In this document: positions 3,838-32,742 of the stretch, one piece after another
How the letters are laid out: each line of letters opens with the position of its first letter
Numbering within the stretch: position 1 is the first letter of the stretch
Virus record (IMG/VR): IMGVR_UViG_3300025000_000248
Length of the DNA: 37,620 bases
Reading direction: 5' to 3' (one strand)
Origin: a virus
Translations under genes and position numbers: made by a program
The notes under the pieces: generated by a model
The model's database searches: none
The model's input: the letters and a program-made list of their open reading frames with translations, nothing else
Told to the model about the DNA's origin: nothing

Positions 3838-3866
3838 ATTATATCATGAAATGGGGGAGAAGTCAA
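3838..3866 (-). promoter_or_regulatory. Sigma-A-type promoter P1: cTTACTTGACTt-N17-TATAAT
   Basis: Conserved 12-mer around -35 and a consensus -10. Confidence 0.7.
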
Positions 3867-3881
3867 GTAACCCCACGTGCT

Positions 3882-3910
3882 AGAGGAGTACACGCAATGT
3901 GTACTCCTCT
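3882..3910. promoter_or_regulatory. Perfect palindrome AGAGGAGTACAC-GCAAT-GTGTACTCCTCT
   Basis: 12-bp stem immediately upstream of P1. Confidence 0.6.
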
Positions 3911-3943
3911 TTGTAGCAAATAGATTTAATGTAGCATCTTCAA

Positions 3944-4096
3944 TTACTTGCCCTCTGCATAGAACTTAAACCATACTTCATATTCCTCTAGGTTTAGTTC
4001 TACACACATACCATCACTCAGTATGTCATCTTCATAACCCTCAGTAGTAAACACACACCCTGATTCAGGGTGATGCCAGTACACCTTAGCTGTCAC
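3944..4096 (-). CDS. Unlisted small ORF (50 aa, GTG start, GGAGGA ribosome-binding site), X-domain-like
   Basis: Translated by eye as VTAKVYWHHPESGCVFTTEGYEDD... Sits between member B and P1. Confidence 0.3.
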   Translation of the reverse strand: MTAKVYWHHPESGCVFTTEGYEDDILSDGMCVELNLEEYEVWFKFYAEGK

Positions 4097-4125
4097 AATT
4101 TATAGTCCTCCATTCTGTTACAATC

Positions 4126-4308
4126 TTATTTCACTACAGCTTTATGCCTAGGACATCCATATAAGGGGCAGGTATGCTTCTGGGTAAGCATACATATCTT
4201 GGATACATGTGAATACTGATCACACACGTCACACTTACATATATTGCTGTTACCTAATTCACCATTAAAGCATACACTAATGTTCACTTCATCACACGTT
4301 TTATCCAC
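4126..4308 (-). CDS. Cys-rich CPLYGCPKH-family protein (member B)
   Basis: ...TCPLYGCPRHKAVVK. Confidence 0.6.
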   Translation of the reverse strand: MDKTCDEVNISVCFNGELGNSNICKCDVCDQYSHVSKICMLTQKHTCPLYGCPRHKAVVK

Positions 4309-4313
4309 ATTAT

Positions 4314-4496
4314 CTACCTCCTAGTTAAGGTCTCCTCATCTGCTAAGGTACAACGCTCTACCCATATGCCGTCTTTACTCGCCATACTCTTAGCCTCTTC
4401 ATGGTCTACTGCTTCATATTCTTCTACTGTGTTATAGAACTTATCAGCATCCATGCCATATCCCTGTCTGCATCCGGCTACTACATACTTTGGCAT
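4314..4496 (-). CDS. Small acidic protein (X1)
   Basis: 60 aa, immediately upstream of member B. Confidence 0.45.
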   Translation of the reverse strand: MPKYVVAGCRQGYGMDADKFYNTVEEYEAVDHEEAKSMASKDGIWVERCTLADEETLTRR

Positions 4497-4508
4497 TTCT
4501 TATCCCTC

Positions 4509-4862
4509 CTATATCATCTTATGATGTTTTAACCTTTCTGGATAGTTAGACATGATATAATCAAATACCTCTTGTTCTGACTCAGTGTTAATTCCTTTAA
4601 CCTTTAGCTCAGAAATAGCTATATGAAATCCTGTGCCATCTTCCCCACGTACAAAGAATGTGCCATAATTTCCACGTATATTGACCTCCACAGTGAAGTT
4701 AGCAATAGGTATACTGTTAGCATTCTCTAGTTCAGCACGTATTTGCATTAGGGCTTCTGCCCAGGACTGTTTACCTGTTTGGGCATCAATTATGGCATCC
4801 TCAATTACCCTACCAATCTCTAACACTTTATCCTCAATATCAGTTGTTGTGTGATTAGACAT
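4509..4862 (-). CDS. Hypothetical protein (117 aa)
   Basis: ORF with no recognised motif. Confidence 0.5.
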   Translation of the reverse strand: MSNHTTTDIEDKVLEIGRVIEDAIIDAQTGKQSWAEALMQIRAELENANSIPIANFTVEVNIRGNYGTFFVRGEDGTGFHIAISELKVKGINTESEQEVFDYIMSNYPERLKHHKMI

Positions 4863-4879
4863 TGCTTGCTACCTCCTTC

Positions 4880-5110
4880 TTAAGACTTATAATCTGACAT
4901 ACTGTTATAAGCTTTAGGCCAATCCTGTTCTTTTACAGTAGCTTCATGCTTGGGACACCCATATAATGGACAAGTACTAACTCCAGTAGATGGGCAGGGG
5001 TCACTGGCATCCATAGAGTAATTGTGATCAATCCTGGGGCAATCTAAACATGGACACCTATCCAGGTTCTGCTCACATATGTGTATTACTTCAGGACATA
5101 GCTTACTCAT
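4880..5110 (-). CDS. Cys-rich CPLYGCPKH-family protein (member C)
   Basis: MSKLCPEVIHIC...CPCLDC...TCPLYGCPKH. Confidence 0.6.
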   Translation of the reverse strand: MSKLCPEVIHICEQNLDRCPCLDCPRIDHNYSMDASDPCPSTGVSTCPLYGCPKHEATVKEQDWPKAYNSMSDYKS

Positions 5111-5313
5111 CCCATCGACCCCAATTCATAGGCTATTAGCATGCCAAGGGGTAAAGACATCTGCTCAGAAGCCATCTTAATAGCTTCTTCCTCAGTTTCA
5201 GCATGAAACACACCTAGAACTAAGTCTCCCTGCATTTCCCTAACACTACCATCATTTTCATTTGTTACATAAGCTACGGCTATAGCTTCACTCTCCACAC
5301 ATACTAGAAACAT
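5107..5313 (-). CDS. Small acidic protein (X2)
   Basis: 68 aa; its 3' end overlaps the start of member C by 4 bp (ATGA-type overlap). Confidence 0.45.
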   Translation of the reverse strand: MFLVCVESEAIAVAYVTNENDGSVREMQGDLVLGVFHAETEEEAIKMASEQMSLPLGMLIAYELGSMG

Positions 5314-5361
5314 TTCACATACCTCCTTATATATTTGGGCATAGTTTCCGCCCCCATTTTA

Positions 5362-5390
5362 ATTATCTCACACTCCAGAGAAAAAGTCAA
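5362..5390 (-). promoter_or_regulatory. Sigma-A-type promoter P2: CTTACTTGACTT-N17-GATAAT with GTGTGA -16 element
   Basis: Conserved motif. Confidence 0.7.
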
Positions 5391-5596
5391 GTAAGATTAG
5401 GTGATATAAGGTTATCCCATGCCTGCCCAAACTAGGGCTTATCAGTAACCTCACAAAAGCTGTAAGAAAATTTGTAAGAGAATTTCTCGGAGAAGGGTTT
5501 CCCATACCGGACGGAAATTCCCTTACAAAGTTCCTATGAAGTTTGTAAGAAGGTTTGTAAGGCCGGGAATAGGCGTCCACCCCCGCAAACGCGGAG

Positions 5597-5620
5597 AGAG
5601 GATACCATGTGGTATCCTCT
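5597..5620. promoter_or_regulatory. Perfect palindrome AGAGGATACCA-TG-TGGTATCCTCT, preceded by small hairpin CCGC-AAAC-GCGG
   Basis: Lies after the stop of member D. Confidence 0.6.
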
Positions 5621-5666
5621 TTGTCCTGGCTTGCTAGTAGGTGATCTGTAATGGGAATTTACACCC

Positions 5667-5831
5667 TTAACATTTTATACTACCCATTACTATGGGACAT
5701 CCATATATAGAACAGGGAGTCCCATTATGGTAATCATAACATGCTGTCCACCTATCACAATCAATACAATAACATGAGTAGCCCTTATTACTGCACTCAG
5801 CACTAGAGATTTCCCAGCATTGTTTAGGCAT
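5667..5831 (-). CDS. Cys-rich family member D (start refined to MPKQCW...)
   Basis: ...CYCIDC...TPCSIYGCP. The track ORF was extended into the upstream overlapping gene. Confidence 0.5.
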   Translation of the reverse strand: MPKQCWEISSAECSNKGYSCYCIDCDRWTACYDYHNGTPCSIYGCPIVMGSIKC

Positions 5832-5982
5832 AGGGTGCCTGCTTTTCAGTAGCAGCACACTTTTGACATCCATAGGCTGGGCATAATCGACATCCTACAT
5901 CGCATGTAGTACAAGGACACATCTTATCCCCAATTGTGTTGTCACATACTAAATTACTCACATCAAGACACATCTTACTCAT
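5824..5982 (-). CDS. Unlisted Cys-rich family member (I): MSKMCLDVSNLVCDNTIGDKMCPCTTCDVGCRLCPAYGCQKCAATEKQAPYA
   Basis: Found by hand translation. Its ATG overlaps the stop of member E (AATGAGTAA) and there is an AAGAGGAAA ribosome-binding site. Confidence 0.5.
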   Translation of the reverse strand: MSKMCLDVSNLVCDNTIGDKMCPCTTCDVGCRLCPAYGCQKCAATEKQAPYA

Positions 5983-6187
5983 TAGTTTCCTCCTTTAATA
6001 TGGCAGTGTGTTTAGGGCACCCATATAAGGGGCAAGTACCTGAAACTGGGTGAGCACACTCACCTTCTTTAAGCTTGATATACCCATCCTCGCAGTACAC
6101 ACACGGGCAGGTACTGTATCCAGTTGCCTCCTCCCGGCAAATATCTTCACAGACTTCTACATCAACCTTATTACAAGGCTTACTCAT
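5975..6187 (-). CDS. Cys-rich CPLYGCPKH-family protein (member E)
   Basis: MSKPCNKVDVEVC...CPCVYC...TCPLYGCPKH. Confidence 0.6.
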   Translation of the reverse strand: MSKPCNKVDVEVCEDICREEATGYSTCPCVYCEDGYIKLKEGECAHPVSGTCPLYGCPKHTAILKEETNE

Positions 6188-6365
6188 TGGTACCACCAGC
6201 TAAGCTTGTCAGATTTGATAGCACTGCACCATACTTTTGACATCCATACAAGGGACAACAAATGCAATCTCCTGATAGGAAAAAATCACAATCTCCACAC
6301 TCACAATAATCATGTCCTTCACACTCACAGACTTCCACATCCACATCCCCACAAAATCTACTCAT
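6180..6365 (-). CDS. Cys-rich family member F
   Basis: MSRFCGDVDVEVCEC...CCPLYGCQKY. Confidence 0.6.
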   Translation of the reverse strand: MSRFCGDVDVEVCECEGHDYCECGDCDFFLSGDCICCPLYGCQKYGAVLSNLTSLAGGTNE

Positions 6366-6525
6366 CATCTTCAACTCCTATCTTTTTACCATCTGCATAG
6401 GTTGCTTTGTGCTCTGCACACCCATATAGGGAGCATTGCTCGCATTGTGGTATTACTGGGCACCCTCTGCACGGACATATCTGATTGGCGCATTCTCGCA
6501 GTACCTCTCTACACAGCTTACTCAT
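6358..6525 (-). CDS. Cys-rich family member G
   Basis: MSKLCREVLREC...CPCRGC...CSLYGCAEH with a GTGAGGAAG ribosome-binding site. Confidence 0.6.
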   Translation of the reverse strand: MSKLCREVLRECANQICPCRGCPVIPQCEQCSLYGCAEHKATYADGKKIGVEDDE

Positions 6526-7006
6526 CTTCCTCACCCCCACTATCTAGACATTTATATGCCATGGCATTGTCGTCTCCGTCTTTTATCACCACCCCTGATA
6601 TTGGAATTACAGTATGCCCTAAGTTAACTAGGTGCTTGATGTGCGCCTTTGCATCCTTACAGTGGCACGTATTGCAGGCATTGCCTTCGCAGTTTAAGCA
6701 CACATCCCTATCATGCTCCTCCAGGATATTCTCAAGGTGCATGGGGTCATTCAGGCCATACACCAAATACGCTGAGCTGGGTGCTGTAGTAGAGTTATCA
6801 CCCCCGTACACAAGGTAGAGGACTGGGGCAGTAGGTTCAGGCTCAGCAGTTGGCAATGGGTGCTTAGGGCATCCAAATATGGGGCAGGTGTTCAGTTTGG
6901 TAATTGCACACACACCTTGATAATTAGACTTATTTTCACACATGTTGCAGTGACATGGGTACCCCTTAGCAGTACACATCTCAATAGATACATCTTTACA
7001 TTCCAT
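6518..7006 (-). CDS. Cys-rich family member H with fused C-terminal X-like domain and second Cys cluster
   Basis: MECKDVSIEMC...CHCNMC...TCPIFGCPKH, then ...AYLVYGLNDPMHLENILEEHD... Confidence 0.6.
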   Translation of the reverse strand: MECKDVSIEMCTAKGYPCHCNMCENKSNYQGVCAITKLNTCPIFGCPKHPLPTAEPEPTAPVLYLVYGGDNSTTAPSSAYLVYGLNDPMHLENILEEHDRDVCLNCEGNACNTCHCKDAKAHIKHLVNLGHTVIPISGVVIKDGDDNAMAYKCLDSGGEEDE

Positions 7007-7175
7007 ACATACACCCCCTTATTTTCCTAAATAAACCTCAAGTGCTGAGAGGAGCCCCATGCTCCCCTCTTTCACTAGTACTTCTTGGATGAGGGAATTT
7101 AAGTACTCTCTATCCTTCTCAGATAACCCCAGCTCTGGTAAATTGAACACAACTGTGATCTTTACTTGCTCCACT

Positions 7176-7526
7176 TTATTCCCCCTTACACATGCGCTCC
7201 ATAATAGTAAGTCTGCTAATAATCATGGTGAGTACACAGGCGCTATCCAACCCATCTATCACGAATCTCTCATGTAACTCCTCGGCGGTAATGTGTTCTC
7301 CCTCTAACCACCCCATTATTTGATCTGCTACCTGGCCAAAGGCAAAACTGGTAGCTGTTGCAGTCTCCCCAGTTTCTAGGTCACTGACCTGCACCATGGA
7401 TTCATCTGTACAGGGCCCTACCTTCAATGTGACATTAAATGGTGTACCGCAACAGACACATATCCACCCCATAATATCAATGTGATGAATCTCAGTGTTG
7501 CTACAATTTGGGCATTTCGTTAACAT
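7176..7526 (-). CDS. Zn-ribbon protein (CPNC...CVCC)
   Basis: ORF of 116 aa. Confidence 0.5.
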   Translation of the reverse strand: MLTKCPNCSNTEIHHIDIMGWICVCCGTPFNVTLKVGPCTDESMVQVSDLETGETATATSFAFGQVADQIMGWLEGEHITAEELHERFVIDGLDSACVLTMIISRLTIMERMCKGE

Positions 7527-7543
7527 CTACATACCTCCCTACT

Positions 7544-7813
7544 TTAATCCCAATAATTACTACCTACTGTATTTACTCCAAGCTTATATAGTTCTCTTAA
7601 GGTTATCTCTAGAATCTTTTCATTGGGGATAGCAGCAATGATGCAAGCGTTAGCTTCAATAGTACTGAGATCAAATGCTTGACCAAGATGAACATTCAGA
7701 AATACATGAAAATGTGGGTATTCAGTAGCTTTAAAGTCATCAACATTAGGGGGTGTCACCAATCCAGTGCCTTCAACATTGTACATACAAGGGTTAAAAA
7801 ATGCTACAGCCAT
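7544..7813 (-). CDS. Hypothetical protein (89 aa)
   Basis: ORF with no recognised motif. Confidence 0.45.
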   Translation of the reverse strand: MAVAFFNPCMYNVEGTGLVTPPNVDDFKATEYPHFHVFLNVHLGQAFDLSTIEANACIIAAIPNEKILEITLRELYKLGVNTVGSNYWD

Positions 7814-7861
7814 TTACATACCTCCTCTTATTTTCTGTGGGGGCATTCTTCCCCACACCCA

Positions 7862-7890
7862 ATTATATCACAAAACAGAGGAGAAGTCAA
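7862..7890 (-). promoter_or_regulatory. Sigma-A-type promoter P3: CTTACTTGACTT-N17-TATAAT (TTGTGA -16 element)
   Basis: Conserved motif. Confidence 0.7.
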
Positions 7891-7926
7891 GTAAGGTTAG
7901 GTGTTATGGGCCTAAGCATGAGAAGG

Positions 7927-7956
7927 TAAAGAAAATAGCCCTTGTAGGGGGCTATT
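7927..7956 (-). terminator. Terminator hairpin AAATAGCCC-TTGTAGG-GGGCTATTT plus TTTCTTT on the minus strand
   Basis: 9-bp stem plus a U-run. Confidence 0.6.
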
Positions 7957-8197
7957 TGTCTACTAATTTCTACTCCTCCTGAATAGATCTGCATACATTA
8001 ATGAGACTGTGCACTAATCCTACAGATGCTGCTAAATGGCCACCCTAACCACCAAGATATAAACTTGCGGCACTAACGCATACCTCCATGCTTATTATCT
8101 TCTCCCTCAGGTTCTTTGCTCATGCACATAAAGATAAGCACCATCCACGCACCTAATCCAGCTAATATGGTTGCTGCACTTATCATGCATAATGCCA

Positions 8198-8461
8198 TCA
8201 TTCTTTACCATCCTCACTACCCTTCCTATACCATATAACTGTATTCCACATGGACTTAGAAGTATCCATGTCGCCAACCGCAATAACAATATACTCAACT
8301 AATAAATAAGCCAATAACCACGGAGGAACTACTAGATGTTTTAATCTTACACCTCCATTTAGGTACTTCATATTAAAGTCTCCCGCATGGTATCCTATAA
8401 AAAGGATTACAGCACTTACGACAAATATTGTAACACTTATTATCCCAAACGCTATTAACAT
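8198..8461 (-). CDS. Small membrane protein
   Basis: Hydrophobic N-terminus. Confidence 0.45.
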   Translation of the reverse strand: MLIAFGIISVTIFVVSAVILFIGYHAGDFNMKYLNGGVRLKHLVVPPWLLAYLLVEYIVIAVGDMDTSKSMWNTVIWYRKGSEDGKE

Positions 8462-8658
8462 ATCCCCGCACTCCTCACTTTAATGTCTTCCACCCAGCCA
8501 TCTACGAACTTGCCTAGTTCCTCAAAGGGTGCTCCTTCTAGGTGACTCCCATACTTCGACTGAGCAATCTCTAGGTAAGTAGCTATATCTTTGGTACTAA
8601 CTCCTAAAGGTTCCAACCCTGCCACTAACATGAAATATAGAGCTTGGTGCTTAGTCAT
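8455..8658 (-). CDS. Hypothetical protein (67 aa)
   Basis: ORF with no recognised motif. Confidence 0.4.
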   Translation of the reverse strand: MTKHQALYFMLVAGLEPLGVSTKDIATYLEIAQSKYGSHLEGAPFEELGKFVDGWVEDIKVRSAGIC

Positions 8659-9145: not shown

Positions 9146-9200
9146 GAGCTTGTCCTCCTCTTTCATATTGAATAAGCCCACATATAAGTGGGCTTATTCT

Positions 9201-9581: not shown

Positions 9582-9592
9582 TATATAGCCCC

Positions 9593-10480: not shown

Positions 10481-11158
10481 TTATCCCAACAATTTAGCAT
10501 CTCGCAATGCCATTATGCAATACATGCGGAGTATCCTCAAATCACCCTTAGCATCTTTCACTTCCAAGTCATTATCCATGGTCATTTGCACTAACTGCTC
10601 TGTAGTGTAGGCAGCATATTTGGACTTAGACTTACCCCCAGTCTTCTCCTTAGGGAAGTGTAGCTCAACAATCGCCATAGCCACACGCATACGCCAGATA
10701 GCCTCATGGTCTGTGACTTTAATGTCGGAGAGAATACCTTCCAGATCAGCCCACTCCATAAGCTCATCAATAGAGAGCTTCTTAATAAACTTCTGTAGAG
10801 GTTTCTTCTCCTTATAAGTACCCTTCTCTGGATAAGTTACATCTGATATCACCGCAGGCTTACCTTGAAGCTTAGGTGCAGGAGTTTCTAGTGGAGGCTC
10901 CTCCTCTTCATCAGTGTTTTCCACCTCTTCAGCAGCAACAGCTACCTCATCCTCAGTGGCATTGTCCAAGGAGGTTTCCACCTCATCTAGAACTTCCAGT
11001 TCAGGCTCTTCATCAATATTGTCCCCGCCATCCACGATAACTCCTGGATATAGACCTGCCTCGATGTCCCGAGTAGTAACACGGGGTACTCCCAGTTCCA
11101 CAGCTAGTTCTTTAAGGGAAGATACCTCTTTGCCATTAACCATATACATTTTACTCAT
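10481..11158 (-). CDS. Hypothetical protein with long acidic (D/E-rich) linker
   Basis: ORF of 225 aa. Confidence 0.5.
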   Translation of the reverse strand: MSKMYMVNGKEVSSLKELAVELGVPRVTTRDIEAGLYPGVIVDGGDNIDEEPELEVLDEVETSLDNATEDEVAVAAEEVENTDEEEEPPLETPAPKLQGKPAVISDVTYPEKGTYKEKKPLQKFIKKLSIDELMEWADLEGILSDIKVTDHEAIWRMRVAMAIVELHFPKEKTGGKSKSKYAAYTTEQLVQMTMDNDLEVKDAKGDLRILRMYCIMALRDAKLLG

Positions 11159-11218
11159 TCACATACACTCCTTCATATTGTTATAGTGGTCGTAGGGTGC
11201 TCCCCGACCCGTTGAATA

Positions 11219-11248
11219 ATTTTATCATGGGGGTGGGGGGGAAGTCAA
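11219..11248 (-). promoter_or_regulatory. Sigma-A-type promoter P4: CTACTTGACTT-N18-TAAAAT
   Basis: Conserved motif. Confidence 0.6.
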
Positions 11249-11412
11249 GTAGACTTAGTTGATAGAGCTTTAAGCATCTGATCTTCAGTGTCCCTTGTAT
11301 TCATATCTTCCATAACTAAGCATAATAGGATTTTTAGCTCAAGTCGGGAGTATCCATGTGATATTTCTTGTAACTCATCTCTGAGGGTTGATAATTCCTT
11401 AACGCTGAACAC
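11245..11412 (-). CDS. Unlisted small ORF (55 aa, GTG start, TAGGAGGT ribosome-binding site)
   Basis: Hand translation VFSVKELSTLRDELQEISHG... Confidence 0.3.
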   Translation of the reverse strand: MFSVKELSTLRDELQEISHGYSRLELKILLCLVMEDMNTRDTEDQMLKALSTKST

Positions 11413-11423
11413 TTACATACCTC

Positions 11424-11716: not shown

Positions 11717-12046
11717 CTACACTATAGTAATGTGATCACTGAAGACATCTAAAGGGAGCCACCGTACACTCTTATCCACCAGATATGGAGAAACATACTC
11801 AAACCCAATAAAGTATCCAGCTAGTGTCTCAGCTATTTCCTCACTCCAGAAATTCTTATCTGAGATGTACTCCGCTATGTACTCTCCGGCTTCTTTAGGA
11901 ACACTGATAGCAGGCTGGATTTCCACCACTTTGATAGTACCTTCCATGAGGCTAGACCACCCAGTGCTAGGATGAATCTTGTAGTGCACATTAAGCACTA
12001 TGGATTCACAAGGTCTAGCTACACCTTCCATTGTAATTACATTCAC
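11717..12046 (-). CDS. Hypothetical protein
   Basis: ORF of 109 aa. Confidence 0.45.
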   Translation of the reverse strand: MNVITMEGVARPCESIVLNVHYKIHPSTGWSSLMEGTIKVVEIQPAISVPKEAGEYIAEYISDKNFWSEEIAETLAGYFIGFEYVSPYLVDKSVRWLPLDVFSDHITIV

Positions 12047-12090
12047 TCACACATACCTCCTTATCTTGCGTGGGCTTCGCCCCACGATTA

Positions 12091-12119
12091 ATTTTACCAT
12101 GGGCTGGGGGAAAAGTCAA
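12091..12119 (-). promoter_or_regulatory. Sigma-A-type promoter P5: CTTACTTGACTT-N17-TAAAAT
   Basis: Conserved motif. Confidence 0.65.
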
Positions 12120-12144
12120 GTAAGGTTAAATGGTATGAAAGCGT

Positions 12145-13796: not shown

Positions 13797-13996
13797 CCCA
13801 CTTCCCCCTCCATGCTCTTAATATGAATCTTCTCGTTTACTTCATAGAATGGGACACCATCCGCCCATTGGCTGTCATCAATGAAAAGGACGCTATTAGA
13901 GTTTTTAGCAACAACCTCTCTGAGCTGTTCTACAATACCATCCAGGTTACGTTTGTTGGCCGCATCTAAGGTCAATGTGATTGAAATTACTGACAT
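13793..13996 (-). CDS. Hypothetical protein (67 aa)
   Basis: ORF with no recognised motif. Confidence 0.4.
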   Translation of the reverse strand: MSVISITLTLDAANKRNLDGIVEQLREVVAKNSNSVLFIDDSQWADGVPFYEVNEKIHIKSMEGEVG

Positions 13997-14046
13997 TATA
14001 CATACCTCCTGTTTAAATTAAAGTAAGGTTCTCTGAACCTCCCCTA

Positions 14047-14102
14047 ATTGTTGCATGAAACCAAGAAAAAGTCAAGTACCTCTAAGGCTTTCCTTAGAGG
14101 TA
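14047..14102 (-). promoter_or_regulatory. Promoter P6 (TACTTGACTT-N17-AACAAT) whose -35 overlaps the palindrome TACCTCTAAGG-CTTTC-CCTTAGAGGTA (14077-14102)
   Basis: Conserved motif with an overlapping 11-bp palindrome. Confidence 0.55.
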
Positions 14103-15548: not shown

Positions 15549-15833
15549 TTAATGTCCTCCTTCACCATTTGATCTTGTTGAAAATAGTTTTTCCAAGAAA
15601 TCCATTCTTGATTCATATTCCCGGATGGCTTGGTCTAGATCAATTACCCTCTGAGTAGTGAAATACACCCTACTTGAAGGCACCCCTATATCCTCAATCC
15701 TGGTACACCAATCTCCATCACATAGTTTCTTTATGATAGAGACTTTTAACCTGTAGTTAAGACCACACTGTACCTTTGTAAGAACCACCCATACATACCT
15801 CCTTCTAGTGCGCGTGGGGTTCTGTCCCATCAT
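15549..15833 (-). CDS. Hypothetical protein (true start probably the internal GTG after the AGAAGGAGG ribosome-binding site)
   Basis: ORF with ribosome-binding site inside the track N-terminus. Confidence 0.4.
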   Translation of the reverse strand: MMGQNPTRTRRRYVWVVLTKVQCGLNYRLKVSIIKKLCDGDWCTRIEDIGVPSSRVYFTTQRVIDLDQAIREYESRMDFLEKLFSTRSNGEGGH

Positions 15834-15836
15834 CTA

Positions 15837-15865
15837 ATTTTCTCACAAAACGAGGGAGAAGTCAA
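15837..15865 (-). promoter_or_regulatory. Sigma-A-type promoter P7: CTACTTGACTT-N17-GAAAAT (TTGTGA -16 element)
   Basis: Conserved motif. Confidence 0.65.
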
Positions 15866-15913
15866 GTAGGGGTAGTTGTTAAGGGAAAATAAGAAGCCCA
15901 TATTGGGCTTCCG

Positions 15914-25752: not shown

Positions 25753-25818
25753 AATAAAGCCCCCTTTCAGATTTAATATTATGTATTATCTGAAGGGAGC
25801 TTATGTGATTAAACGGAG

Positions 25819-26055
25819 CTATTTATTTTGTCTAGCGCACACCTGTATAATCAGATTTATGAGAAGGTCAAATTTATTACTGCTTATTTCTACCATACCA
25901 CTTTCACTGGGCCAAGAACCACTACTATCGGGAAAGCACCAAGTGCAATACAACCACTCAAATAACACGTACTTATCTTTATGATTGGCAAAATATTTAT
26001 AAACTTCACCTTCACCATTGCACTCTTTACAGTCTTGCTTAGCATCCTCTTGCAT
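25819..26055 (-). CDS. Small Cys-containing hypothetical protein
   Basis: ORF of 78 aa with TAAGGGG ribosome-binding site. Confidence 0.45.
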   Translation of the reverse strand: MQEDAKQDCKECNGEGEVYKYFANHKDKYVLFEWLYCTWCFPDSSGSWPSESGMVEISSNKFDLLINLIIQVCARQNK

Positions 26056-27026
26056 TGTATACCCCTTAATTAAACAAGGTAGCCAAGGTGTACAATATCT
26101 TGGCTACCTATTTGCGACCTTTAGGGTAAGTCGCCCACCCCAGTAATTATTAAGCATGTCGTTAGTGCGTGCATGCCCAGAGTTTCATTAACGCTAGAAA
26201 CTCTCTGAGTACTACTGAAAACTCATAAACTATGCGACCGTTAAAGGACAACGGTGAGTCCTAGGGATGAACAATAGAGCTTGATCAGAGCTGTTTCTGT
26301 CCCTACTCACAATACTAGAACATCTAACATATTCCATTAGGTAGCCACCTGAAGACTGCTTATACCTAGTACTATGAGTAAGGACAGTGTGGGAATTCTA
26401 CCCACGTTGGTAGAGTGCACTCCTGCCAACCGAGTCTAACAACTGTACTTACCTCAGCTTTGTCATACATGGGACTAATACCCAACGGATGGTTCCCATT
26501 GTGCTAGGCAGCTACCCCTCTCACACAGTTTCGAGTAACGGACTAAAACTGTCCAGAACCAACAACACTCGTAAACAAACGGCACTGTTTTTGACAGGGT
26601 ATGCTCCCCCTGTTAGAATAAAAAGAATTTAGCCATGCACATGTGATACACTACCCTAAGGTTGCTACTCACAATCATAAATGCTTGCTTTATCCACTTC
26701 TACTCTAATCCACACACGCTGTGTTATAATGATGCTAACAGATCATCATAAGCCAGAAACAGCACACAGGGATTAAGGTAGAATTAGGGGCCAGAGACAG
26801 GACTTTATACCTGCATTCCTCACGCTTTTAGGCATGTGCTTTTGGATTAAAGCTACTCTGGCATGTAAAATGAGGGCATAGATTTGCACCATGCACACCC
26901 TGCTAGTTTTCGGTTTACCTTGTGATCAGCCCTTACCCCACCTTAAACAAGTATGGTACCATTAAGGTTTCTTGCACGACTTGTTCACTCTAAAGCGTCT
27001 ATCCATTCCGCCACCCCACAGAATAT
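26056..27026. other. About 970-bp ORF-free segment (no ORF of 60 aa or more in six frames) with balanced GC and many local stems: candidate structured ncRNA(s) or degenerate tRNA-like elements. It begins with the palindrome GGTAGCCAAG-11 nt-CTTGGCTACC (26078-26108).
   Basis: Absence of ORFs in the six-frame track plus visible stems. Confidence 0.4.
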
Positions 27027-27281
27027 TTAACTGCTACCTAAACGTCTTTTGGCCTCTTCCAGAATTTCAATAGCCCGGTCAGCGTCATCAGATATACTCT
27101 CTATCAAACCCGCCATCCCTGAATTAATTGGCCTAGCTACTGCCCCCTCCGGATTGGGGTGTATAGAATGCAATACCATGAAAGAAAGTTCAGCTAAACG
27201 AGATACCTTAGCTTCTAGAGACTGTAAACTTGACCAAATTGAGTCCTCAGAAACACATTTCGCAACAGAATTCATATTCAT
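27027..27281 (-). CDS. Hypothetical protein (start refined to MNMNSVAKC with GAAGGAGG ribosome-binding site, which avoids overlap with the tRNA)
   Basis: ORF with ribosome-binding site. Confidence 0.45.
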   Translation of the reverse strand: MNMNSVAKCVSEDSIWSSLQSLEAKVSRLAELSFMVLHSIHPNPEGAVARPINSGMAGLIESISDDADRAIEILEEAKRRLGSS

Positions 27282-27307
27282 TATATTTCCTCCTTCAAGT
27301 ATGTAAT

Positions 27308-27384
27308 TGGTAGGCCACATAGGATTTGAACCCATGACTCCCGAGATATAAGCTCGGTACTCTAACCAACTGAGTTAGTGGCCT
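27308..27384 (-). tRNA. tRNA with anticodon UAU (Ile, AUA-reading) and encoded CCA
   Basis: Folded by hand. Acceptor AGGCCAC/GTGGCCT is 7/7, D arm ACTC/GAGT, anticodon arm CCGAG-CTTATAT-CTCGG, T arm ATGGG-TTCAAAT-CCTAT, 3' end ACCA. Confidence 0.7.
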
Positions 27385-27388
27385 ATTA

Positions 27389-27463
27389 TGGCGGCAAGGT
27401 GTAGGGATCGCACCCACGTTAAGAGTTTTGGAGACTCCTGTTCTACTACTGAACTAACCTGCC
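27389..27463 (-). tRNA. Probable tRNA-Trp (anticodon CCA) with encoded CCA and atypical T arm
   Basis: Acceptor GGCAGGT/CCTTGCC is 6/7, D arm GTTC/GAAC, anticodon arm GGAGT-CTCCAAA-ACTCT. T loop is TGCGATC (G55, unusual). Confidence 0.5.
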
Positions 27464-27832
27464 ATTTGCAGTTAGAGTGAGTTTCGCTTGACACAGCTAC
27501 TACTCACCCTTTTCCACCTAGGAACTGAATAACACAAGGTGTCAGTTTATAAAGATTGCCGTCCCCCTAGGCTAAGTCAGTTGCCCTGCGTGGTTCTACT
27601 GACAATGTACGGATAGTTCCTTCTCAGTTCCAGTTTCGTCGTTTACTGCTAGCAACTATCAAGCGTTAACTCTCGCCCTATTATGGCGACAGCACGTCAT
27701 TAGGGTAAACCTAGAGCTTGTGGCCCTAACCAACTCCATCGCTTTGTGAATGTCTACGGGGGACTAGCCTGTGCAAGACGCTTGAAGTCATGGAGTTGGG
27801 TAGGGGCATATGCCCCTTGAACTATCTGCTTA

Positions 27833-28726
27833 TCACTTCGCTGCAGGTAGTGGTAAACTTATCATATTGTTTCCGCCAGAAACCATAGACAATTTACCAT
27901 CCCAGTGTAATGCAAGCTGGTACTGAATCAGCTCTGGAGTTATAGATGCTTGTAGCAATTTATTAGAATTAGCTTCTCCAGTAGCTTTTATAACAGAAGC
28001 ATCTGCTATACCTTGGGCATCCACTCTAGCCTTGTTAGCGGTAACTGTGGATTGTGTTAATTCAATCTCCATTTGTTGGAGCTTTTGTTGAGCATCCACC
28101 TTAGCTTGAATAGCTTTCATGGTATCTTCGTCCGGCCTAATTTCTCCAAATGAAAATGTTTCAACCTCTAGGCCAAAGGGTGTCAAGTCTTTGATCAGTA
28201 TTGCATGTATTTTTTCTTGGATTTCTGTACGCTTGTTTCCGTAAAGGTCAAGAACACTGTAGCTAGATGTTACGGCCTGGGATGCAGTCTTTACTTGCTG
28301 CTTGAGGTATCCCGACTGTATGCTCTCAATGTCTGCACCTTTAAAACGATTAAATATTTCCGGTAATTTGTCCACATTAGCGTGGTAAGTAAAATATGCG
28401 TCAACTGATACCGGCTTACCCTCCATTGTGGAGGTATTATAGGAATCATCATTGGGAGAACCTTCTGTCTTAGCCTTAGTTAGCCATACAGTTTCGGTTG
28501 AAACTGGGTATTCCCTAACACTCTTCCAAGGGGCTACTGGGTGCACCCCTTGACCTAACGTGACATCTTCCAGCCCCCCACTCATGTTGTAAATGACCCC
28601 AGCATGCCCTGGATTAACCTTTGTTGTGCAAATTACCCCCAGAATTAGAAGTATTAGCATCCCCACTACTGTTAGAATCGCTCCCTTTGAAAACTTTGGT
28701 AACCCCAGATCTAGATTTCTCCTCAT
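27833..28726 (-). CDS. SPFH/band-7 (prohibitin/HflK/C/stomatin-like) membrane protein
   Basis: N-terminal TM, then VNPGHAGVIY...FGLEV...TMKAIQAKVDAQQ...ANKARVDAQG pattern. AAGGGAGGAAA ribosome-binding site. Confidence 0.8.
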   Translation of the reverse strand: MRRNLDLGLPKFSKGAILTVVGMLILLILGVICTTKVNPGHAGVIYNMSGGLEDVTLGQGVHPVAPWKSVREYPVSTETVWLTKAKTEGSPNDDSYNTSTMEGKPVSVDAYFTYHANVDKLPEIFNRFKGADIESIQSGYLKQQVKTASQAVTSSYSVLDLYGNKRTEIQEKIHAILIKDLTPFGLEVETFSFGEIRPDEDTMKAIQAKVDAQQKLQQMEIELTQSTVTANKARVDAQGIADASVIKATGEANSNKLLQASITPELIQYQLALHWDGKLSMVSGGNNMISLPLPAAK

Positions 28727-28871
28727 TGTTTAACATTTCCTCCCTTAAATAGGAGGACACCCTGTCCACTCCCCCACCTAACCTTTTAAATAAAGGACTC
28801 AGCGCAAACCATATAAGTACAAAAGCGAGAACAATAAGTATTGGAATAGCTGGCATTATGAACAATGGCAT
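28614..28871 (-). CDS. Small membrane protein overlapping the SPFH gene start by about 113 nt in another frame (NfeD-like partner?)
   Basis: Very hydrophobic N-terminus. The overlap makes the exact extent uncertain. Confidence 0.35.
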   Translation of the reverse strand: MPLFIMPAIPILIVLAFVLIWFALSPLFKRLGGGVDRVSSYLREEMLNNEEKSRSGVTKVFKGSDSNSSGDANTSNSGGNLHNKG

Positions 28872-28877
28872 CCCTCC

Positions 28878-29035
28878 TTAATGTATGTGCAAAGGGTAGG
28901 CTAGGAATCGAACCTAACTTCAACCGCCACTTATGTGTAGTAACTGATACTCCCAAGAGAGTATGTAGGAGTCGAACCTAACTTCAGAGCCTCTCACATA
29001 TAGTAGTTGCTACCCTTAACTATGATACCAGATTG
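28878..29035 (-). tRNA. Two tandem tRNA-like elements sharing TGAAGTTAGGTTCGA(C/T)TCCTA T-arm motifs. Full cloverleaves could not be resolved by hand.
   Basis: Canonical GGTTCGANTCC T-loops on the minus strand at about 28895-28905 and about 28968-28977. Acceptor pairing was not found. Confidence 0.3.
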
Positions 29036-29255
29036 TGGGAATTGTAGAAGGCTGGTGATAGAGATCCTTACGCATAAGGACTTATTATGCCATACACTTA
29101 ACACTTTCACCCACCACTGACTAGGTCCAGCTTAAAATAGTACTCATGTTGTCTAACATGATTCCTCGCCTACCAAGCCGTCCTACTTAACGCTGTACAA
29201 CATTTATAGGCCCAATTCTTCTCGGCTTTTCACTGGGCAGTCGCTAGACTGCTTA

Positions 29256-29459
29256 ACCTGGTATCATAATTAAAGGTAGGCATATGCCTCCCAAGATAAA
29301 TATGCGGGGGTAAGGATTTGCACCTTACATGATAGGAGTTTACCCTCGATTAAGCCTATCCCTCTGTCTGCAACCCTCTTAAGGACTTAGGTTTATTTAT
29401 GCAAACAATCGGGAGCGTCTACCTTTTCCGCCACCCCTGGTATCATAATTAAAGGTAGG
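29256..29459. repeat. 24-bp direct repeat CCTGGTATCATAATTAAAGGTAGG at 29256-29279 and 29436-29459, plus an inverted near-copy at 29009-29032
   Basis: Seen in sequence. Confidence 0.8.
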
Positions 29460-29525
29460 AAGTCGGTGGAATCTCACCCTCCAAGGTTTGCACCTTTGCG
29501 TATTCACTACACTACTTCCATATGT

Positions 29526-29602
29526 TGGCAGTACATACAGGAATCGAACCCGTGTTACTAGCTTGACAGGCTAGCGTCCTATAACCCCTAGGAGAACGTA
29601 CC
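29526..29602 (-). tRNA. tRNA-Asp (anticodon GUC) with encoded CCA
   Basis: Anticodon arm CTAGC-CTGTCAA-GCTAG, T arm ACGGG-TTCGATT-CCTGT, acceptor GGTACGT/ATGTACT (2 G-U pairs), 3' end GCCA. Confidence 0.65.
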
Positions 29603-29609
29603 AAGTTAA

Positions 29610-29951
29610 TTAGAATATCTTGTTAGACAGAGTAGCATTTACCTCAATAAGCGGTAGCCCACCTATAAGGAACTTTATAATTCCCTCTAACTGACCATCT
29701 TCATCTAAGATACTGCATATACTGCCGGCACTAGAGCATCCATAGATAACTGTGTTTGTGCTGTTAGCAACATAGCCAACTTTGTCTAGGTTTTCCATGT
29801 ATATGGCAATTGCTTCAGTATCAAAAGGATTATCCCTTTCTCTAACAAGCTTAACTTTTGCACCTAGTTTAAAGATACTTGTTAAAGAAGAACCCTCAAA
29901 TACTCTAGGATTACAACTATTAGCCACTACCATATTTACATATTTAACCAC
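29610..29951 (-). CDS. HIRAN-domain-like protein
   Basis: ...GAKVKLVRERDNPFDTEAIAIY...KVGYVA resembles the HIRAN G-x-V-x-L-x-REP-x-N-x-YD-x-NAI signature. Confidence 0.45.
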   Translation of the reverse strand: MVKYVNMVVANSCNPRVFEGSSLTSIFKLGAKVKLVRERDNPFDTEAIAIYMENLDKVGYVANSTNTVIYGCSSAGSICSILDEDGQLEGIIKFLIGGLPLIEVNATLSNKIF

Positions 29952-30498
29952 ATTGTCACCACCATTCTGTTAGTTATTGATGAGCACTTGTGGGCTTTCC
30001 ACCCACTCGTCGGTTTGTGGCTTATAAGTCCACCATAACTCGTCTCTTACGTCAGGTTGGTTACTGACAGCCTTACGGACTACACTCAGTTAGCCTTTAC
30101 ATCAGGGGAGTGTAGCGTTATTTTGTCCACGAACTATCGAACTACTGTCTTGACCACATGGGCATTTTAGGGCTTGCACATAGGCATAGTTGCTTAAGCT
30201 CAACTTAGCTCTTTGACCTGCAACCACAGGCTACAGAGTACCTATATAGCCTTTCTCGGGCAGTAGTTCTCTTTATGCTCTACTATGAAGCACCTAATCC
30301 CTACACCTCTGTGCTTCGTGCCACGTATCCCGACACAACGTGGTTCCCCTCGAATATCCTTGGAAGGTTCAGAGGGAGTCAGGAGGTCTACTAAACATTT
30401 AGTGTGTCAATAAAACACTCCTCTGCTTTTCGTCCTCACCGTCGTGCCCCTGAACACTTTGAAAAAACCACCCATCCAAAAGTTTTCTCTTGTTAAGC
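29952..30498. other. About 550-bp ORF-free segment between the HIRAN gene and the sigma gene: candidate structured ncRNA
   Basis: No ORF of 60 aa or more; GC-balanced; several inverted repeats. Confidence 0.35.
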
Positions 30499-31038
30499 TC
30501 AATATATATCTGGGCCATATTTCTCCACCAGTTTGCTGTACTCTTTAAGATATTTGATGCTAAGAAAGTAAACTCTAGCTTGTACCCTATTAACTGAAAC
30601 CCCCTCTTCAGCAGCTAGCTCTCTTAAAGATTTCTTGTGTATTATGAGTCCTTCCATTAACTTCCGGTGTTTCTCCCCCAACACTATGCTAGGATCAATA
30701 CTCATCATGTCTATAGCACGCTGTATATCCTTCTCATTATAACTCTGCTCATATGCAGAAAAATCCTCTTCACATGTCTCCTTATTTACCACTCTCAAGT
30801 ATTTTGTGATATGGTGGTATACTCGGAATTCCAACATCTTCTTAATATAATATGGAAAGTCCACTCCACGTTTAGGGCTATACTCATTGACCAATTGAAT
30901 AAATAACATGTTTACTGCTGCAAATAAGTCTTCCCTATCTGCCCCGTTATGCATCATGTGAACAAATTTTTTAGTCATGGCTTTACGGAGTGGCTCATAA
31001 TTTCTAAACAGTGTTTCAGGATCTAACATTAAACTCAT
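30499..31038 (-). CDS. Phage-encoded sigma-70-family sigma factor (regions 2 and 4 only)
   Basis: Region 2-like DLFAAVNMLFIQLVNEYSP...FPYYIKKMLEFRV and region 4 HTH SLRELAAEEGVSVNRVQARV. Confidence 0.7.
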   Translation of the reverse strand: MSLMLDPETLFRNYEPLRKAMTKKFVHMMHNGADREDLFAAVNMLFIQLVNEYSPKRGVDFPYYIKKMLEFRVYHHITKYLRVVNKETCEEDFSAYEQSYNEKDIQRAIDMMSIDPSIVLGEKHRKLMEGLIIHKKSLRELAAEEGVSVNRVQARVYFLSIKYLKEYSKLVEKYGPDIY

Positions 31039-31337
31039 TTATCCATCACCAACCCATACTCACCTGTTATTATAGAGGAATATAGTATACATGTATCAAT
31101 TCTACCGGAGTTCTCAATGCCATAATACCCATAGGACACAACTAAAAAATGGCTGTATACCTTTTCTATCCTAACCACCCTTGATTCTTGATCATGAGGA
31201 TTGAGCATCAGTGCTCGTACTCCCACCAACTTCTGGTACTTGTTTTGCATGTTTCTAAACATGAGGGTAGCCTCAGTTGCCTGAGGCTTTTTTGCTTTCT
31301 TTTTATGTTCTTCCAGTTTTTCTAGGAATTGTTTCAA
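31035..31337 (-). CDS. Hypothetical protein
   Basis: ORF of 100 aa with a 4-bp overlap with the sigma gene. Confidence 0.45.
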   Translation of the reverse strand: MKQFLEKLEEHKKKAKKPQATEATLMFRNMQNKYQKLVGVRALMLNPHDQESRVVRIEKVYSHFLVVSYGYYGIENSGRIDTCILYSSIITGEYGLVMDK

Positions 31338-31348
31338 AATAAATCCCC

Positions 31349-32632
31349 CTATTTGTCGTCCCTGAACTTGACAAATGTAGGAAACCGTAGAGATTTTGTC
31401 CCCTTCTGGTTGCTGGTAATCTCCTGGTATCTGATCTCAATGGTTCTGTCTATGAGATCATTGCGTCTAGCCCATAGGTTATCCCGCTCACCATTCTTCT
31501 TCTTAAACCCAGAACCTACGTTGACGGAGTTACCTTCAAAATCCACTACTAAAGCTCCCAACGTTCCTTCAAGATCAGTACCTTTTTTACCTTCTTCAAC
31601 TCCAATGACTACTAGATCAATTGTCTCCATAGGCTTTAGTTTCTGTAATGAGTGTGTACGTTTACATTCATACACAGCATCTAGATCCTTAATCATCACA
31701 CCTTCATGCCCAGCATCAGTAAGATCTCTATATGACTTCATTACTTCAACCTCATCATCCCCTGTAAAAAACTTACCAGGCAGTTCACGATTTAGGAAAT
31801 TAGCACCCTCAGTATCAATACTAACTGACATTGATCTGAGTCTTCTGTATAAGGGTTGCGTGCCTTTACCTTCTCTAAATTCATGTATAGGTACCATGTC
31901 AAAGATGTTTAGTACACCATCTTTATCAGTTTTACCTAATTTAAATATATCCTTTTGTGTAGAGCTAAAAGATTGATCACGAGACATTATCTCCCCATCA
32001 TATACAAACCCTTTGATGGTACGCAATTTAAGTTCATGCTCTATACCTGTGTACCCAATTATGCGATGCCCATTACGAGTAAACAATTCCACCGTGTCAT
32101 CATCTAAATGAAACCCCAGACATCTGTACCCATCCCACTTAATCTCTTCTATAAATCGTTTAGGCCACTTCTTAAATGGGTGTGCTAGCATACAATCAAA
32201 AGTAGGAATGAACCCCTTCTCAGCTTTGTTGATACTCTTGTCTGTCATGCCAATTTTAAGGTCTTTCTGAAGTACCTTGGAGTACCACTTAACCTCAACC
32301 TCAGAACATAAGCTCAAAAATACAAATACTGCATCAATTGCTAAGTTTCCAGTCATTTTTCTGTCCTGTAGATCCTGTAACAAGTCCATGAATGACACAA
32401 ATCTGTCTCCACAGCTTCCACAGTCACATGGACTGACATCTGGCACTTTTTTAATATTATACATTCTGAAGGGGTTATAGGTGGCCTCAACTAATTTACG
32501 GAATGCTGGATTCCTCATGCCCGTCTTGATATAGTCATCTTTTGTATTACGAGAAGCAGTACTACCAATAGCCTCAAATAGATTAAAACATTCTTCAATT
32601 AAGCGTATTTCCAATGTGTTTTCCCCTTCCAA
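31349..32632 (-). CDS. ATP-dependent DNA ligase
   Basis: Motif I KWDGYR, motif III FVYDGEIM, motif IV EGVMIK, motif VI RFPTFVKFRDDK. Confidence 0.9.
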   Translation of the reverse strand: MEGENTLEIRLIEECFNLFEAIGSTASRNTKDDYIKTGMRNPAFRKLVEATYNPFRMYNIKKVPDVSPCDCGSCGDRFVSFMDLLQDLQDRKMTGNLAIDAVFVFLSLCSEVEVKWYSKVLQKDLKIGMTDKSINKAEKGFIPTFDCMLAHPFKKWPKRFIEEIKWDGYRCLGFHLDDDTVELFTRNGHRIIGYTGIEHELKLRTIKGFVYDGEIMSRDQSFSSTQKDIFKLGKTDKDGVLNIFDMVPIHEFREGKGTQPLYRRLRSMSVSIDTEGANFLNRELPGKFFTGDDEVEVMKSYRDLTDAGHEGVMIKDLDAVYECKRTHSLQKLKPMETIDLVVIGVEEGKKGTDLEGTLGALVVDFEGNSVNVGSGFKKKNGERDNLWARRNDLIDRTIEIRYQEITSNQKGTKSLRFPTFVKFRDDK

Positions 32633-32713
32633 TTAAATTAATCCCACATATGAATTTTTACTCTTAAAGGTAAAAAATGATAGGATCAGTAAGTCTTGAG
32701 CTGGCTCTCTTTT

Positions 32714-32742
32714 AATTTCTCATGAAACGGACGAAAAATCAA
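32714..32742 (-). promoter_or_regulatory. Sigma-A-type promoter P10 (degenerate): TTGATT-N17-GAAATT with CATGA -16 region
   Basis: Shares the TAATTTCTCATGA downstream block with P1-P9. Confidence 0.45.

Follow-up and report, generated by a model that had tools for sequence, protein, structure and literature searches.

Nine probable early promoter cassettes in a DNA stretch from an uncultured SPO1-like phage

Nine promoter-leader cassettes on one strand

Examining a viral DNA stretch of 37,620 nucleotides (nt) (IMGVR_UViG_3300025000_000248; hereafter the window, to whose full length all positions refer), in which every gene lies on the minus strand, we found nine copies of an extended promoter-like motif, P1 to P9, all on that same strand. 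Each copy is co-oriented with the genes behind it and belongs to a larger cassette, in which the motif is followed by a short leader with a predicted hairpin and a strong Shine-Dalgarno sequence (SD) (Table 1). Searching the window for CTTACTTGACTT with at most two mismatches gave 14 matches against 4.9 expected, a number that none of 100 shuffles attained. A two-block position weight matrix (PWM), built from the extracted minus-strand sites and covering -41 to -24 and -17 to -5 with a spacer of 16-18 nt, scored the nine sites at 35-45 bits (23-42 bits in leave-one-out scoring), while the top plus-strand site reached 6.9 bits and the maximum over 20 Markov-shuffled windows was 9.6. The low ends of the nine -10 hexamers are 3838, 5362, 7862, 11219, 12091, 14047, 15837, 19109 and 24462. 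A preliminary description of this DNA had counted ten minus-strand copies. Its positions agree with these except that it gave 24463 for 24462, but its tenth site, P10, which ranks next in the PWM scan, scores 12.8 bits, far under the nine. P10 is marginal and the count is nine plus one. The -35 element and T-rich spacer of P10 double as the 3' arm and T-run of a terminator (32763-32738), and the site lacks the hairpin and SD leader, having about 80 nt of leader ahead of a ligase open reading frame (ORF).

The consensus of the nine sites reads ..TA.cAc.TAa.cT-TAC-TTGACT-T-(ttcCccc)-gtttca-TG-A-nAaAAT-TA. The -35 hexamer is TTGACT in every copy, matching TTGACA at five of six positions (P10 has TTGATT), and the spacer measures 17 nt in eight copies and 18 nt in P4, both as first described. 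All -10 hexamers (TATAAT twice, GATAAT once, TAAAAT twice, AACAAT once and GAAAAT three times) fit nAnAAT, so that the second base is invariably A and the sixth invariably T; T occupies the first position in just four, the other five having G or A there. TG is found at -15/-14 in eight of the nine, as TGTG, the full TRTG, in P2, P3 and P7 and as CATG in five, while P9 has GAG, with AG at -15/-14, an exception to the TRTG/CATGA element at -16 that had been ascribed to each copy. TRTG is the -16 region of Gram-positive sigma-A promoters (Voskuil & Chambliss 1998, as cited in PMC3113569). By an in-sample estimate, 15-23 of the ~40 motif bits fall outside the hexamers and TG, and since about half of the motif information sits there, the extended character of the motif is real. 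The first nine spacer positions are 85% pyrimidine, compared with 44% for the minus strand overall.

Composition speaks against the UP-like element that had been suggested: the region from -60 to -39 is 56% A+T (A fraction 0.29) compared with ~59% window-wide, and without A/T or A-tract enrichment an A/T-rich site for the alpha C-terminal domain at -40 to -60 was dropped. Also dropped was the pyrimidine tract as an anti-SD hiding the SD in read-through RNA, pairing being predicted for P1, P3 and partly P5 only.

Turning to the leaders, we found a start codon with a strong SD 42-60 nt downstream of the -10 element in 9/9 cassettes. The SD has the form (A/G)GGAGGTATGT and stands 7-9 nt ahead of the start codon. 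We counted exactly eight instances of the 10-mer GGAGGTATGT across the window, and six belong to genes that come first after a promoter, which bears out the strong SD noted earlier. Furthermore, a small hairpin beginning 3-10 nt past the -10 element, with a stem of 4-9 base pairs (bp), is predicted in all nine leaders. A GTGGGG...CCCCAC hairpin had been reported for each copy; P3, P5 and P8 have the literal form and P7 a degenerate one, but the remaining leaders carry other small hairpins in the same place. Compared with dinucleotide shuffles, the hairpins of P3, P5 and P8 fold significantly better (z = -2.3 to -3.7) and those of P2 and P4 moderately so (-1.4 to -1.7); the Stouffer combination of all nine is about -4.

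The terminator that had been described as usually lying just upstream is canonical and intrinsic at six of the ten sites (P3, P5, P6, P7, P9 and P10), but P1 and P2 have hairpins without a T-run, and the terminator scan gave none directly upstream of P4 and P8. The TGA inside the P4 TTGACT is the stop codon of an upstream ORF of 55 amino acids (aa). The P9 terminator was read from the alignment with a relative of the window and had been missed by the scan because its loop exceeds 8 nt; at its position the relative has a different yet fully paired stem, then a T-run. The hairpins upstream of P1 and P2 have fold energies of -27.3 and -26.4 kcal/mol and a common start, AAAGAGGA(G)TAC, and may be terminators devoid of a U-tract or RNA processing sites. 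The RNase III consensus of phage SPO1 (TTGCTAGT...CATGGAGCC long stems, RS-A to RS-D) was not found in the window, and these two hairpins do not match it.

Table 1. Cassettes and associated features of the window (SD, Shine-Dalgarno sequence; z, fold score against dinucleotide shuffles)
Feature	Position	Strand	Promoter	PWM (bits)	Leader hairpin	SD	Start codon	First gene or remark
P1 cassette	3793..3871	-	3871-3836, GTTAC TTGACT-17-TATAAT TA	45.2	3830-3814 (GCCCCGAAGGTCTGGGC)	GGAGG at 3808	GTG 3795	124 aa
P2 cassette	5311..5395	-	5395-5360, CTTAC TTGACT-17-GATAAT TA	44.2	5357-5333	5326	ATG 5313	68 aa
P3 cassette	7811..7895	-	7895-7860, CTTAC TTGACT-17-TATAAT TG	43.0	7857-7836 (TGTGGGG..CCCCACA, z = -2.8)	7825	ATG 7813	89 aa
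P4 cassette	11156..11253	-	11253-11217, TCTAC TTGACT-18-TAAAAT TA	43.1	11209-11188	11171	ATG 11158	225 aa
P5 cassette	12044..12124	-	12124-12089, CTTAC TTGACT-17-TAAAAT TA	45.1	12086-12069 (CGTGGG..CCCACG, z = -2.3)	12060	GTG 12046	109 aa
P6 cassette	13994..14080	-	14080-14045, GGTAC TTGACT-17-AACAAT TA	35.0	14044-14022	14009	ATG 13996	67 aa
P7 cassette	15786..15870	-	15870-15835, CCTAC TTGACT-17-GAAAAT TA	45.1	15834-15812 (weak, z = +0.5)	15802	GTG 15788	79 aa
P8 cassette	19058..19142	-	19142-19107, CTTAT TTGACT-17-GAAAAT TA	38.0	19105-19084 (GCGTGGGG..CCCCACCGC, z = -3.7)	19074	ATG 19060	655 aa, UvrD-type helicase (Pfam)
P9 cassette	24408..24495	-	24495-24460, CTTAC TTGACT-17-GAAAAT TA, without TG at -15/-14	41.3	24452-24437 (weak)	24423	ATG 24410	448 aa
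P10, marginal	32712..32747	-	-35 at 32742, TTGATT-17-GAAATT, CATGA upstream	12.8
225-aa gene, first of P4 unit	10481..11158	-						acidic stretches; phrog_12391
Hairpin immediately upstream of P1	3882..3910	-						perfect, 12 bp, without T-run
Hairpin upstream of P2	~5590-5620	-						similar, perfect, without T-run
Terminator upstream of P3	7933..7957	-						compensatory stem changes in relative
Terminator upstream of P5	12152..12176	-						compensatory changes in relative
Terminator at P6	14074..14105	-						3' arm and T-run overlap -35 hexamer and T-rich spacer; compensatory changes in relative
Terminator upstream of P7	15892..15912	-						compensatory changes in relative
Terminator upstream of P9	24513..24551	-						CTACCACAA-loop-TTGTGGTAG + TTTTGTTTT

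Conservation in a relative and in strain variants

No close match to the window at the level of near-identical DNA was found among 50,697 phage records, and its distant blastn matches are only helicases of Bacillus Herelleviridae. A loose promoter pattern run across IMG/VR returned mostly single chance matches and one true relative, IMGVR_UViG_3300024999_000044 (= Ga0209728_1000035; 141.9 kb), whose helicase is 88% identical and whose DNA is ~67-79% identical and collinear over 32 kb; a search for relatives with the 146-aa and 458-aa proteins of the window gave none. The relative has orthologues of all nine cassettes, that of P2 with TCGACT as -35 hexamer. Over the cassette (-45 to ~+50), orthologues are 84% identical. 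Identity between paralogues of the window averages 62%, with a maximum of 73% and longest identical runs of 12-20 nt, and it is likewise 62% for non-orthologous pairs that combine the two phages. The copies had been called near-identical, which holds for ~30 core positions but not for the ~95 nt over which the paralogue mean was taken. Given that orthologues are far closer than paralogues, the copies are old and evolve independently, with no gene conversion homogenising them, and concerted evolution or recent duplication as the source of their similarity was dropped. The conservation indicates that the shared positions are kept by purifying selection.

Alignment to the relative holds from ~-45 to the start codon and collapses upstream of several cassettes, beginning at ~-45 for P4 and P7; the P4 cassette is 95% identical to its orthologue while its upstream flank is unalignable. 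The first ten spacer positions show 17 transitions and 10 transversions between orthologues, a count in which indels shift P4 and P6 out of register, and since many of the changes are between C and T, the pyrimidine tract seems constrained in composition and not in sequence. The leader hairpins are kept in orthologues and strain variants despite changed arms and loops, that of P1 being identical in the relative.

Two strain contigs differ from the window in gene content. Contig L138 is 98.7% identical to the window over 2.4 kb. The match breaks off precisely at 7813, the start codon behind P3, and sets in again precisely at 7538, where the next gene has its GGAGGTATGT SD. In this part (L138 3020-3710; window 7960-7530), two nearly identical P3-type cassettes surround two unrelated genes, for a 93-aa Cys-rich and a 44-aa protein, which replace the 89-aa gene; in the second cassette, directly ahead of the homologue of a 116-aa gene, 33 nt comprising the 3' arm of the hairpin and the SD are duplicated in tandem. 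Contig L135, else 100% identical, has an extra gene at 3191-3836 (window junction 8695/8659), flanked by the 176-aa and 67-aa genes. It encodes a 182-aa XRE-type helix-turn-helix protein with a C-terminal Cys cluster, and no cassette lies at the junctions. Junctions with the relative are fuzzy at 75% identity, so that the coincidence of cassette and junction comes to one case (L138) and one counter-example (L135).

The relative carries a second cluster of five or six promoters of the same flanking type on the opposite strand (L079 37455-44530, minus strand), reading GTAC-TTGACT-TTTTCYCTG..CCGTG-TAWAAT. Two of them, X1 and X4, are followed by similar G+C-rich structured sequence (AACATCAGCAGGGGACAC...), and X1, from which it is ~1 kb to the next plausible ORF, may drive a non-coding RNA. 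Other large low-G+C phage contigs of IMG/VR (L014/L077, L063/L076 and L023/L038; 84-167 kb) have their own families of many near-identical, extended TTGAC[AT]-17-(T)ATG-TATAAT promoters, some of which stand before transfer RNA (tRNA) genes. In L063, 5 kb contain 11 copies, which share a conserved block upstream (cTTAAcA..AAA) and a leader reading atcaaa..gaaaGGAG.

Likeness to early regions of SPO1-like phages and its interpretation

The gene that P4 precedes links the window to SPO1. By tblastn, its 225-aa product shares 49% identity with SPO1 gp51 and the e3 (gp44) protein in the C-terminal half, and 32% with SPO1 gp25.1 along its whole length; the homologue in Exiguobacterium phage vB_EalM-132 carries the annotation 'similar to gp44'. 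The SPO1 genes for gp44, gp51 and gp25.1 are early genes of transcription control (PMC13401047). This family is the sole match to an SPO1 early protein, and most small ORFs of the window are without a PHROG or Pfam match.

We compared the cassettes with the SPO1 host-takeover module (GenBank AF031901.1; Stewart et al. 1998 Virology 246:329, as cited in PMC12282133), in which 12 early promoters, PE1-PE12, and a PE1' variant are annotated in 11.5 kb, many with a terminator immediately upstream, together with six RNase III sites. The window has nine promoters in ~21 kb (3.8-24.5 kb), and in both phages the promoters head short operons of small genes of unknown function, with a gp44/gp51-family gene behind one of them. 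The promoters of both have TTGAC[T/A]T, a 17-bp spacer with a pyrimidine-rich start (TTCCCTAC in SPO1), a GTG/TRTG -16 element (GTG in SPO1), an nAnAAT -10 hexamer (nATAAT in SPO1) and a very strong SD; many SPO1 leaders have G+C hairpins (GCGGG..CCCGC; GGCGGGGGCAACCCCGCTC after PE4), and their ribosome sites are AAAGGAGAGGTT. The two differ around this core. SPO1 has an AAAAAG A-tract at ~-45 to -38 and 76% A+T upstream (A 0.51), where the window has cac.TAAcCTTAC and the A+T content on which the UP-like element foundered; the SPO1 spacer start is 70% pyrimidine, not 85%, and its -10 is aATAAT compared with [T/G]A[T/A]AAT. In addition, the SPO1 RNase III sites have a conserved long stem for which no equivalent was found in the window, its promoters diverge on both strands inside the terminal redundancy whereas those of the window all lie on one, and the two DNAs have no detectable similarity. 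The complete SPO1 genome record has no promoter features near the helicase to compare with P8.

The same grammar recurs elsewhere. Within the first 12.6 kb of Exiguobacterium phage vB_EalM-132 (Spounavirinae) lie 12 promoters of this type. In Listeria phage CKA15 (P100-like Herelleviridae), ONT-cappable-seq places the 5-min start sites at TTGACTT ... ATGnTATACTTAA (excerpted text of PMC12282133). According to the same excerpts, CKA15 shares with the window TTGACTT including the extra T, ATGnTATnnT followed by TAA (-16 to -5) and a ATGnTATnnTTAA element, in dozens of copies upstream of early genes, while a cassette of 5' hairpin and SD is not described in them. Judging from these genomes, each SPO1-like phage has its own flanking 'dialect' on a shared core. 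That of the window is shared by its relative: TAC ahead of the -35 hexamer, 85% pyrimidine in the first nine spacer positions and an upstream region not enriched in A+T (0.56).

Together, the data make it very probable that the window belongs to the early, host-takeover-type part of the genome of an uncultured lytic phage that is SPO1-like (Herelleviridae-type) and infects a Bacillus-like Firmicute, and that it carries nine sigma-A early cassettes. About ten early units read by a host sigma-A-type polymerase had been proposed; hexamers, spacing, TG, orientation, the distance to SD and start codon, the gp44-family gene and the SPO1 grammar all fit such units, but about nine of them. Unmodified host RNA polymerase with sigma-A would read the nine promoters straight after infection, and each cassette would open a short operon through its promoter, a leader of ~40-55 nt and a near-perfect SD, the leader starting, at or near the predicted start site, with the small G+C-rich stem-loop. 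Polymerase binding and the stability of the open complex are most probably enhanced by the -16 element together with the sequences flanking the hexamers, and the intrinsic terminators before most cassettes would insulate the units. TAC before the -35 hexamer, T after it, the pyrimidine-rich half-spacer and TA after the -10 hexamer can be read as this phage's own dialect, held by selection. The 5' stem-loop and strong SD probably shield the transcripts from 5'-end-dependent decay (RppH/RNase J1). They resemble the 5' stabilisers of B. subtilis, namely the aprE stem-loop with ribosome binding, the polypurine, SD-like element of SP82 and hbs (Hambraeus 2002, Hue 1995, Daou-Chabo 2009, as cited in PMC3997798), in that a stem-loop predicted at or near the 5' end is combined with a very strong SD in a short leader, and differ from a clear stabiliser in that the hairpins are short and four of nine are weak.

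Several points weigh against this reading. The start sites, the timing and the polymerase are ones that we infer for this phage from its DNA and by analogy. Five -10 hexamers are without the usual first-position T, and the TG extension may be required there. The hairpins of P1, P6, P7 and P9 are no better than those of shuffled sequence, and with a start 7 nt past the -10 element the outer pairs of several predicted stems would stay untranscribed. Nothing presented here explains the pyrimidine-rich spacer and the TAC extension.

Among the alternatives, the cassettes may mainly be portable recombination modules, whose likeness to one another would let early genes be exchanged, acquired or lost by homology. 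We consider this possible but on balance unlikely, and it is compatible with a promoter role. Such modules are documented as the promoter-early stem-loop (PeSL) cassettes of T4-type phages, which have been found experimentally to recombine and to form mini-circles (PMC2839356, PMC4122927). As in the window, PeSLs are composites of a terminator and a strong early promoter, repeated among small non-essential genes of a large lytic myovirus, and the composite of stem-loop terminator and promoter is present at 6/10 window sites. The replacement in L138, bounded by the P3 start codon and the next GGAGGTATGT and lying between two P3-type cassettes, is what modules of this kind would produce, and the homology that begins only at ~-45 upstream of P4 and P7 points the same way. 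Against this, L138 is the one clear case and the L135 indel involves no cassette, paralogues at 62% show no concerted evolution, and identical runs of 12-20 nt are short for homologous recombination. PeSLs also belong to another lineage with Gram-negative hosts and are more uniform than the 62% paralogues of the window, whose unit, unlike a PeSL, runs downstream through the leader hairpin and SD. That this unit of ~100-130 bp (terminator, dialect promoter, 5' hairpin and GGAGGTATGT) is a portable cassette, giving captured genes prompt, strong and stable early expression and also the short homologies for swaps of early genes among co-infecting phages of this Firmicute clade, is a tentative idea that we regard as unlikely. 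If true, it would be a Gram-positive counterpart of the T4 PeSL extended to translation signals, and L138 would be a snapshot of such an event.

It is less probable that the G+C block after the -10 element acts as DNA, as discriminator or initial transcribed region affecting the open complex, escape or the initiating nucleoside triphosphate, and not as an RNA hairpin; we hold this to be quite unlikely. Four of the hairpins are thermodynamically unremarkable, and because the stems begin 3-10 nt after the -10 element, part of each may lie upstream of +1, which would make a DNA-level role possible; determinants downstream of -10 are known in B. subtilis (PMC3113569). However, orthologues and strain variants keep the potential to form a hairpin although their arms and loops have changed, and SPO1 early leaders have hairpins of unrelated sequence.

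The preliminary description had also suggested an additional factor, and TAC-TTGACT-T, the pyrimidine tract and TA after -10 might form a site for an extra phage or host protein, such as an early shut-off factor or an HU/TF1-like protein. The information outside the hexamers and TG and the bias of the tract would suit such a site. TF1 binds near SPO1 early promoters. In SPO1, early promoters are shut off by phage proteins, but the known ones, gp44 and gp33, target RNA polymerase and not DNA (PMC13401047). Moreover, the tract drifts freely by C/T exchanges in orthologues and paralogues, which argues for a constraint on composition or structure, related phages put different flanks round the same core, and no DNA-binding gene is tied to the motif. 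With dialects of their own in SPO1-like phages and a spacer constrained in composition, an additional factor is not needed, and we judge one improbable.

Two genes of the sigma-70 family lie in the window, as had been stated, at 33908-35284 (458 aa) and 30499-31038 (179 aa), both on the minus strand; in the 458-aa protein, unusually long for an SPO1-type phage sigma, Pfam recognises sigma-70 region 2 only. That one of them reads the motif, which would then mark middle or late units, is very improbable: several -10 hexamers do deviate at the first position, but the motif is that of a textbook sigma-A promoter, Gram-positive -16 element included, and precedes an SPO1 early-gene homologue, the homologous SPO1 promoters are sigma-A dependent in vitro, as found for PE5 with the sigma-A holoenzyme (PMC13401047), similar CKA15 motifs map to genes peaking at 5 min (PMC12282133), and the phage sigmas of SPO1 use quite different sequences, the middle (AGGAGA-N-TTTNTTT) and late (GTTAGA-N-GATATT) promoter motifs being absent from the window. 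A temporal switch through the phage sigma factors would be plausible by analogy with SPO1. The observation offered for it, that the structural block and the sigma genes lack the motif, fares less well: no virion (head or tail) gene was recognised among the window proteins with Pfam or PHROG, so that a structural block is not identifiable here, and a motif-free sigma gene sits ill with counting P10, because P10 lies upstream of the string of genes from the ligase to the 179-aa sigma gene.

The early-region reading does not amount to a new kind of regulatory system, the arrangement being already known from SPO1 and start sites having been mapped in other Herelleviridae. It provides a map of putative transcription units for the early region of an uncultured SPO1-like phage without a close sequenced relative, and it flags small ORFs likely to serve host takeover. 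The shared early-cassette grammar (TTGACTT, pyrimidine-rich spacer, TG, -10, 5' hairpin and strong SD) may aid the annotation of metagenomic Firmicute phages, and the cassettes may be a source of compact, strong promoter and leader parts for Bacillus-type hosts.

Other genes and repeats of the window

Besides the UvrD helicase behind P8, the recognised genes encode an M23 peptidase (in the P9 unit), an ATP-dependent ligase, a 5'-3' exonuclease, a gp32-like single-strand-binding protein, an SPFH protein and a protein with the major-vault-protein shoulder domain, and there are three to four tRNAs. The UvrD-type helicase of the relative (contig merged from L133/L121/L136, 12518-15769) has 1083 aa, compared with the 655 aa encoded at window 17093-19060; the inserted ~430 aa, missing from the window copy, are probably an intein like the one annotated in SPO1 gp34.33. 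The vault-domain protein (842 aa, 19440-21968, minus strand) has shoulder and repeat domains (Pfam E = 6e-26), and its gene forms its own terminator-bounded unit without a P motif. A 113-aa HIRAN-domain protein is encoded at 29610-29951 (minus strand). The SPFH/Band-7 protein (27833-28726, minus strand) has homologues 70-78% identical at the protein level in phage contigs of 28-29% G+C, and because these contigs are otherwise unrelated and lack the motif, horizontal transfer of the gene is suggested.

Upstream of P9, a region ~4.7 kb long (25800-30500, minus strand) has few ORFs. Genes for tRNA-Ile(TAT), tRNA-Trp and tRNA-Asp lie there together with a borderline fourth one (26789-26862, 29.4 bits), as do several tRNA-like pieces, namely 5' halves, GGGGTGGCGGAA(T/A)(G/A)G(A)TAGACGC, at ~27018 and ~29430, and repeated AAGGTGCAAAYCCTT T-arm-like hairpins, with inserts of 50-100 nt between the tRNA-like pieces. 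ARAGORN with introns allowed found no tRNA introns in the region, and the tRNA-like pieces were called neither by ARAGORN nor by Rfam. The part of the window from 27251 to 26524 is 82% identical to the relative, above most coding DNA.

Upstream of P2, at 5460-5562 (minus strand), five copies of (T/C)CTTACAAA, one of them inverted, crowd into ~100 bp inside a 270-nt non-coding gap. Their CTTAC core matches the 5' extension seen in the promoters; window-wide the 9-mer shows no enrichment, its clustering alone being noteworthy, and the cluster could consist of iterons or form a protein-binding array.

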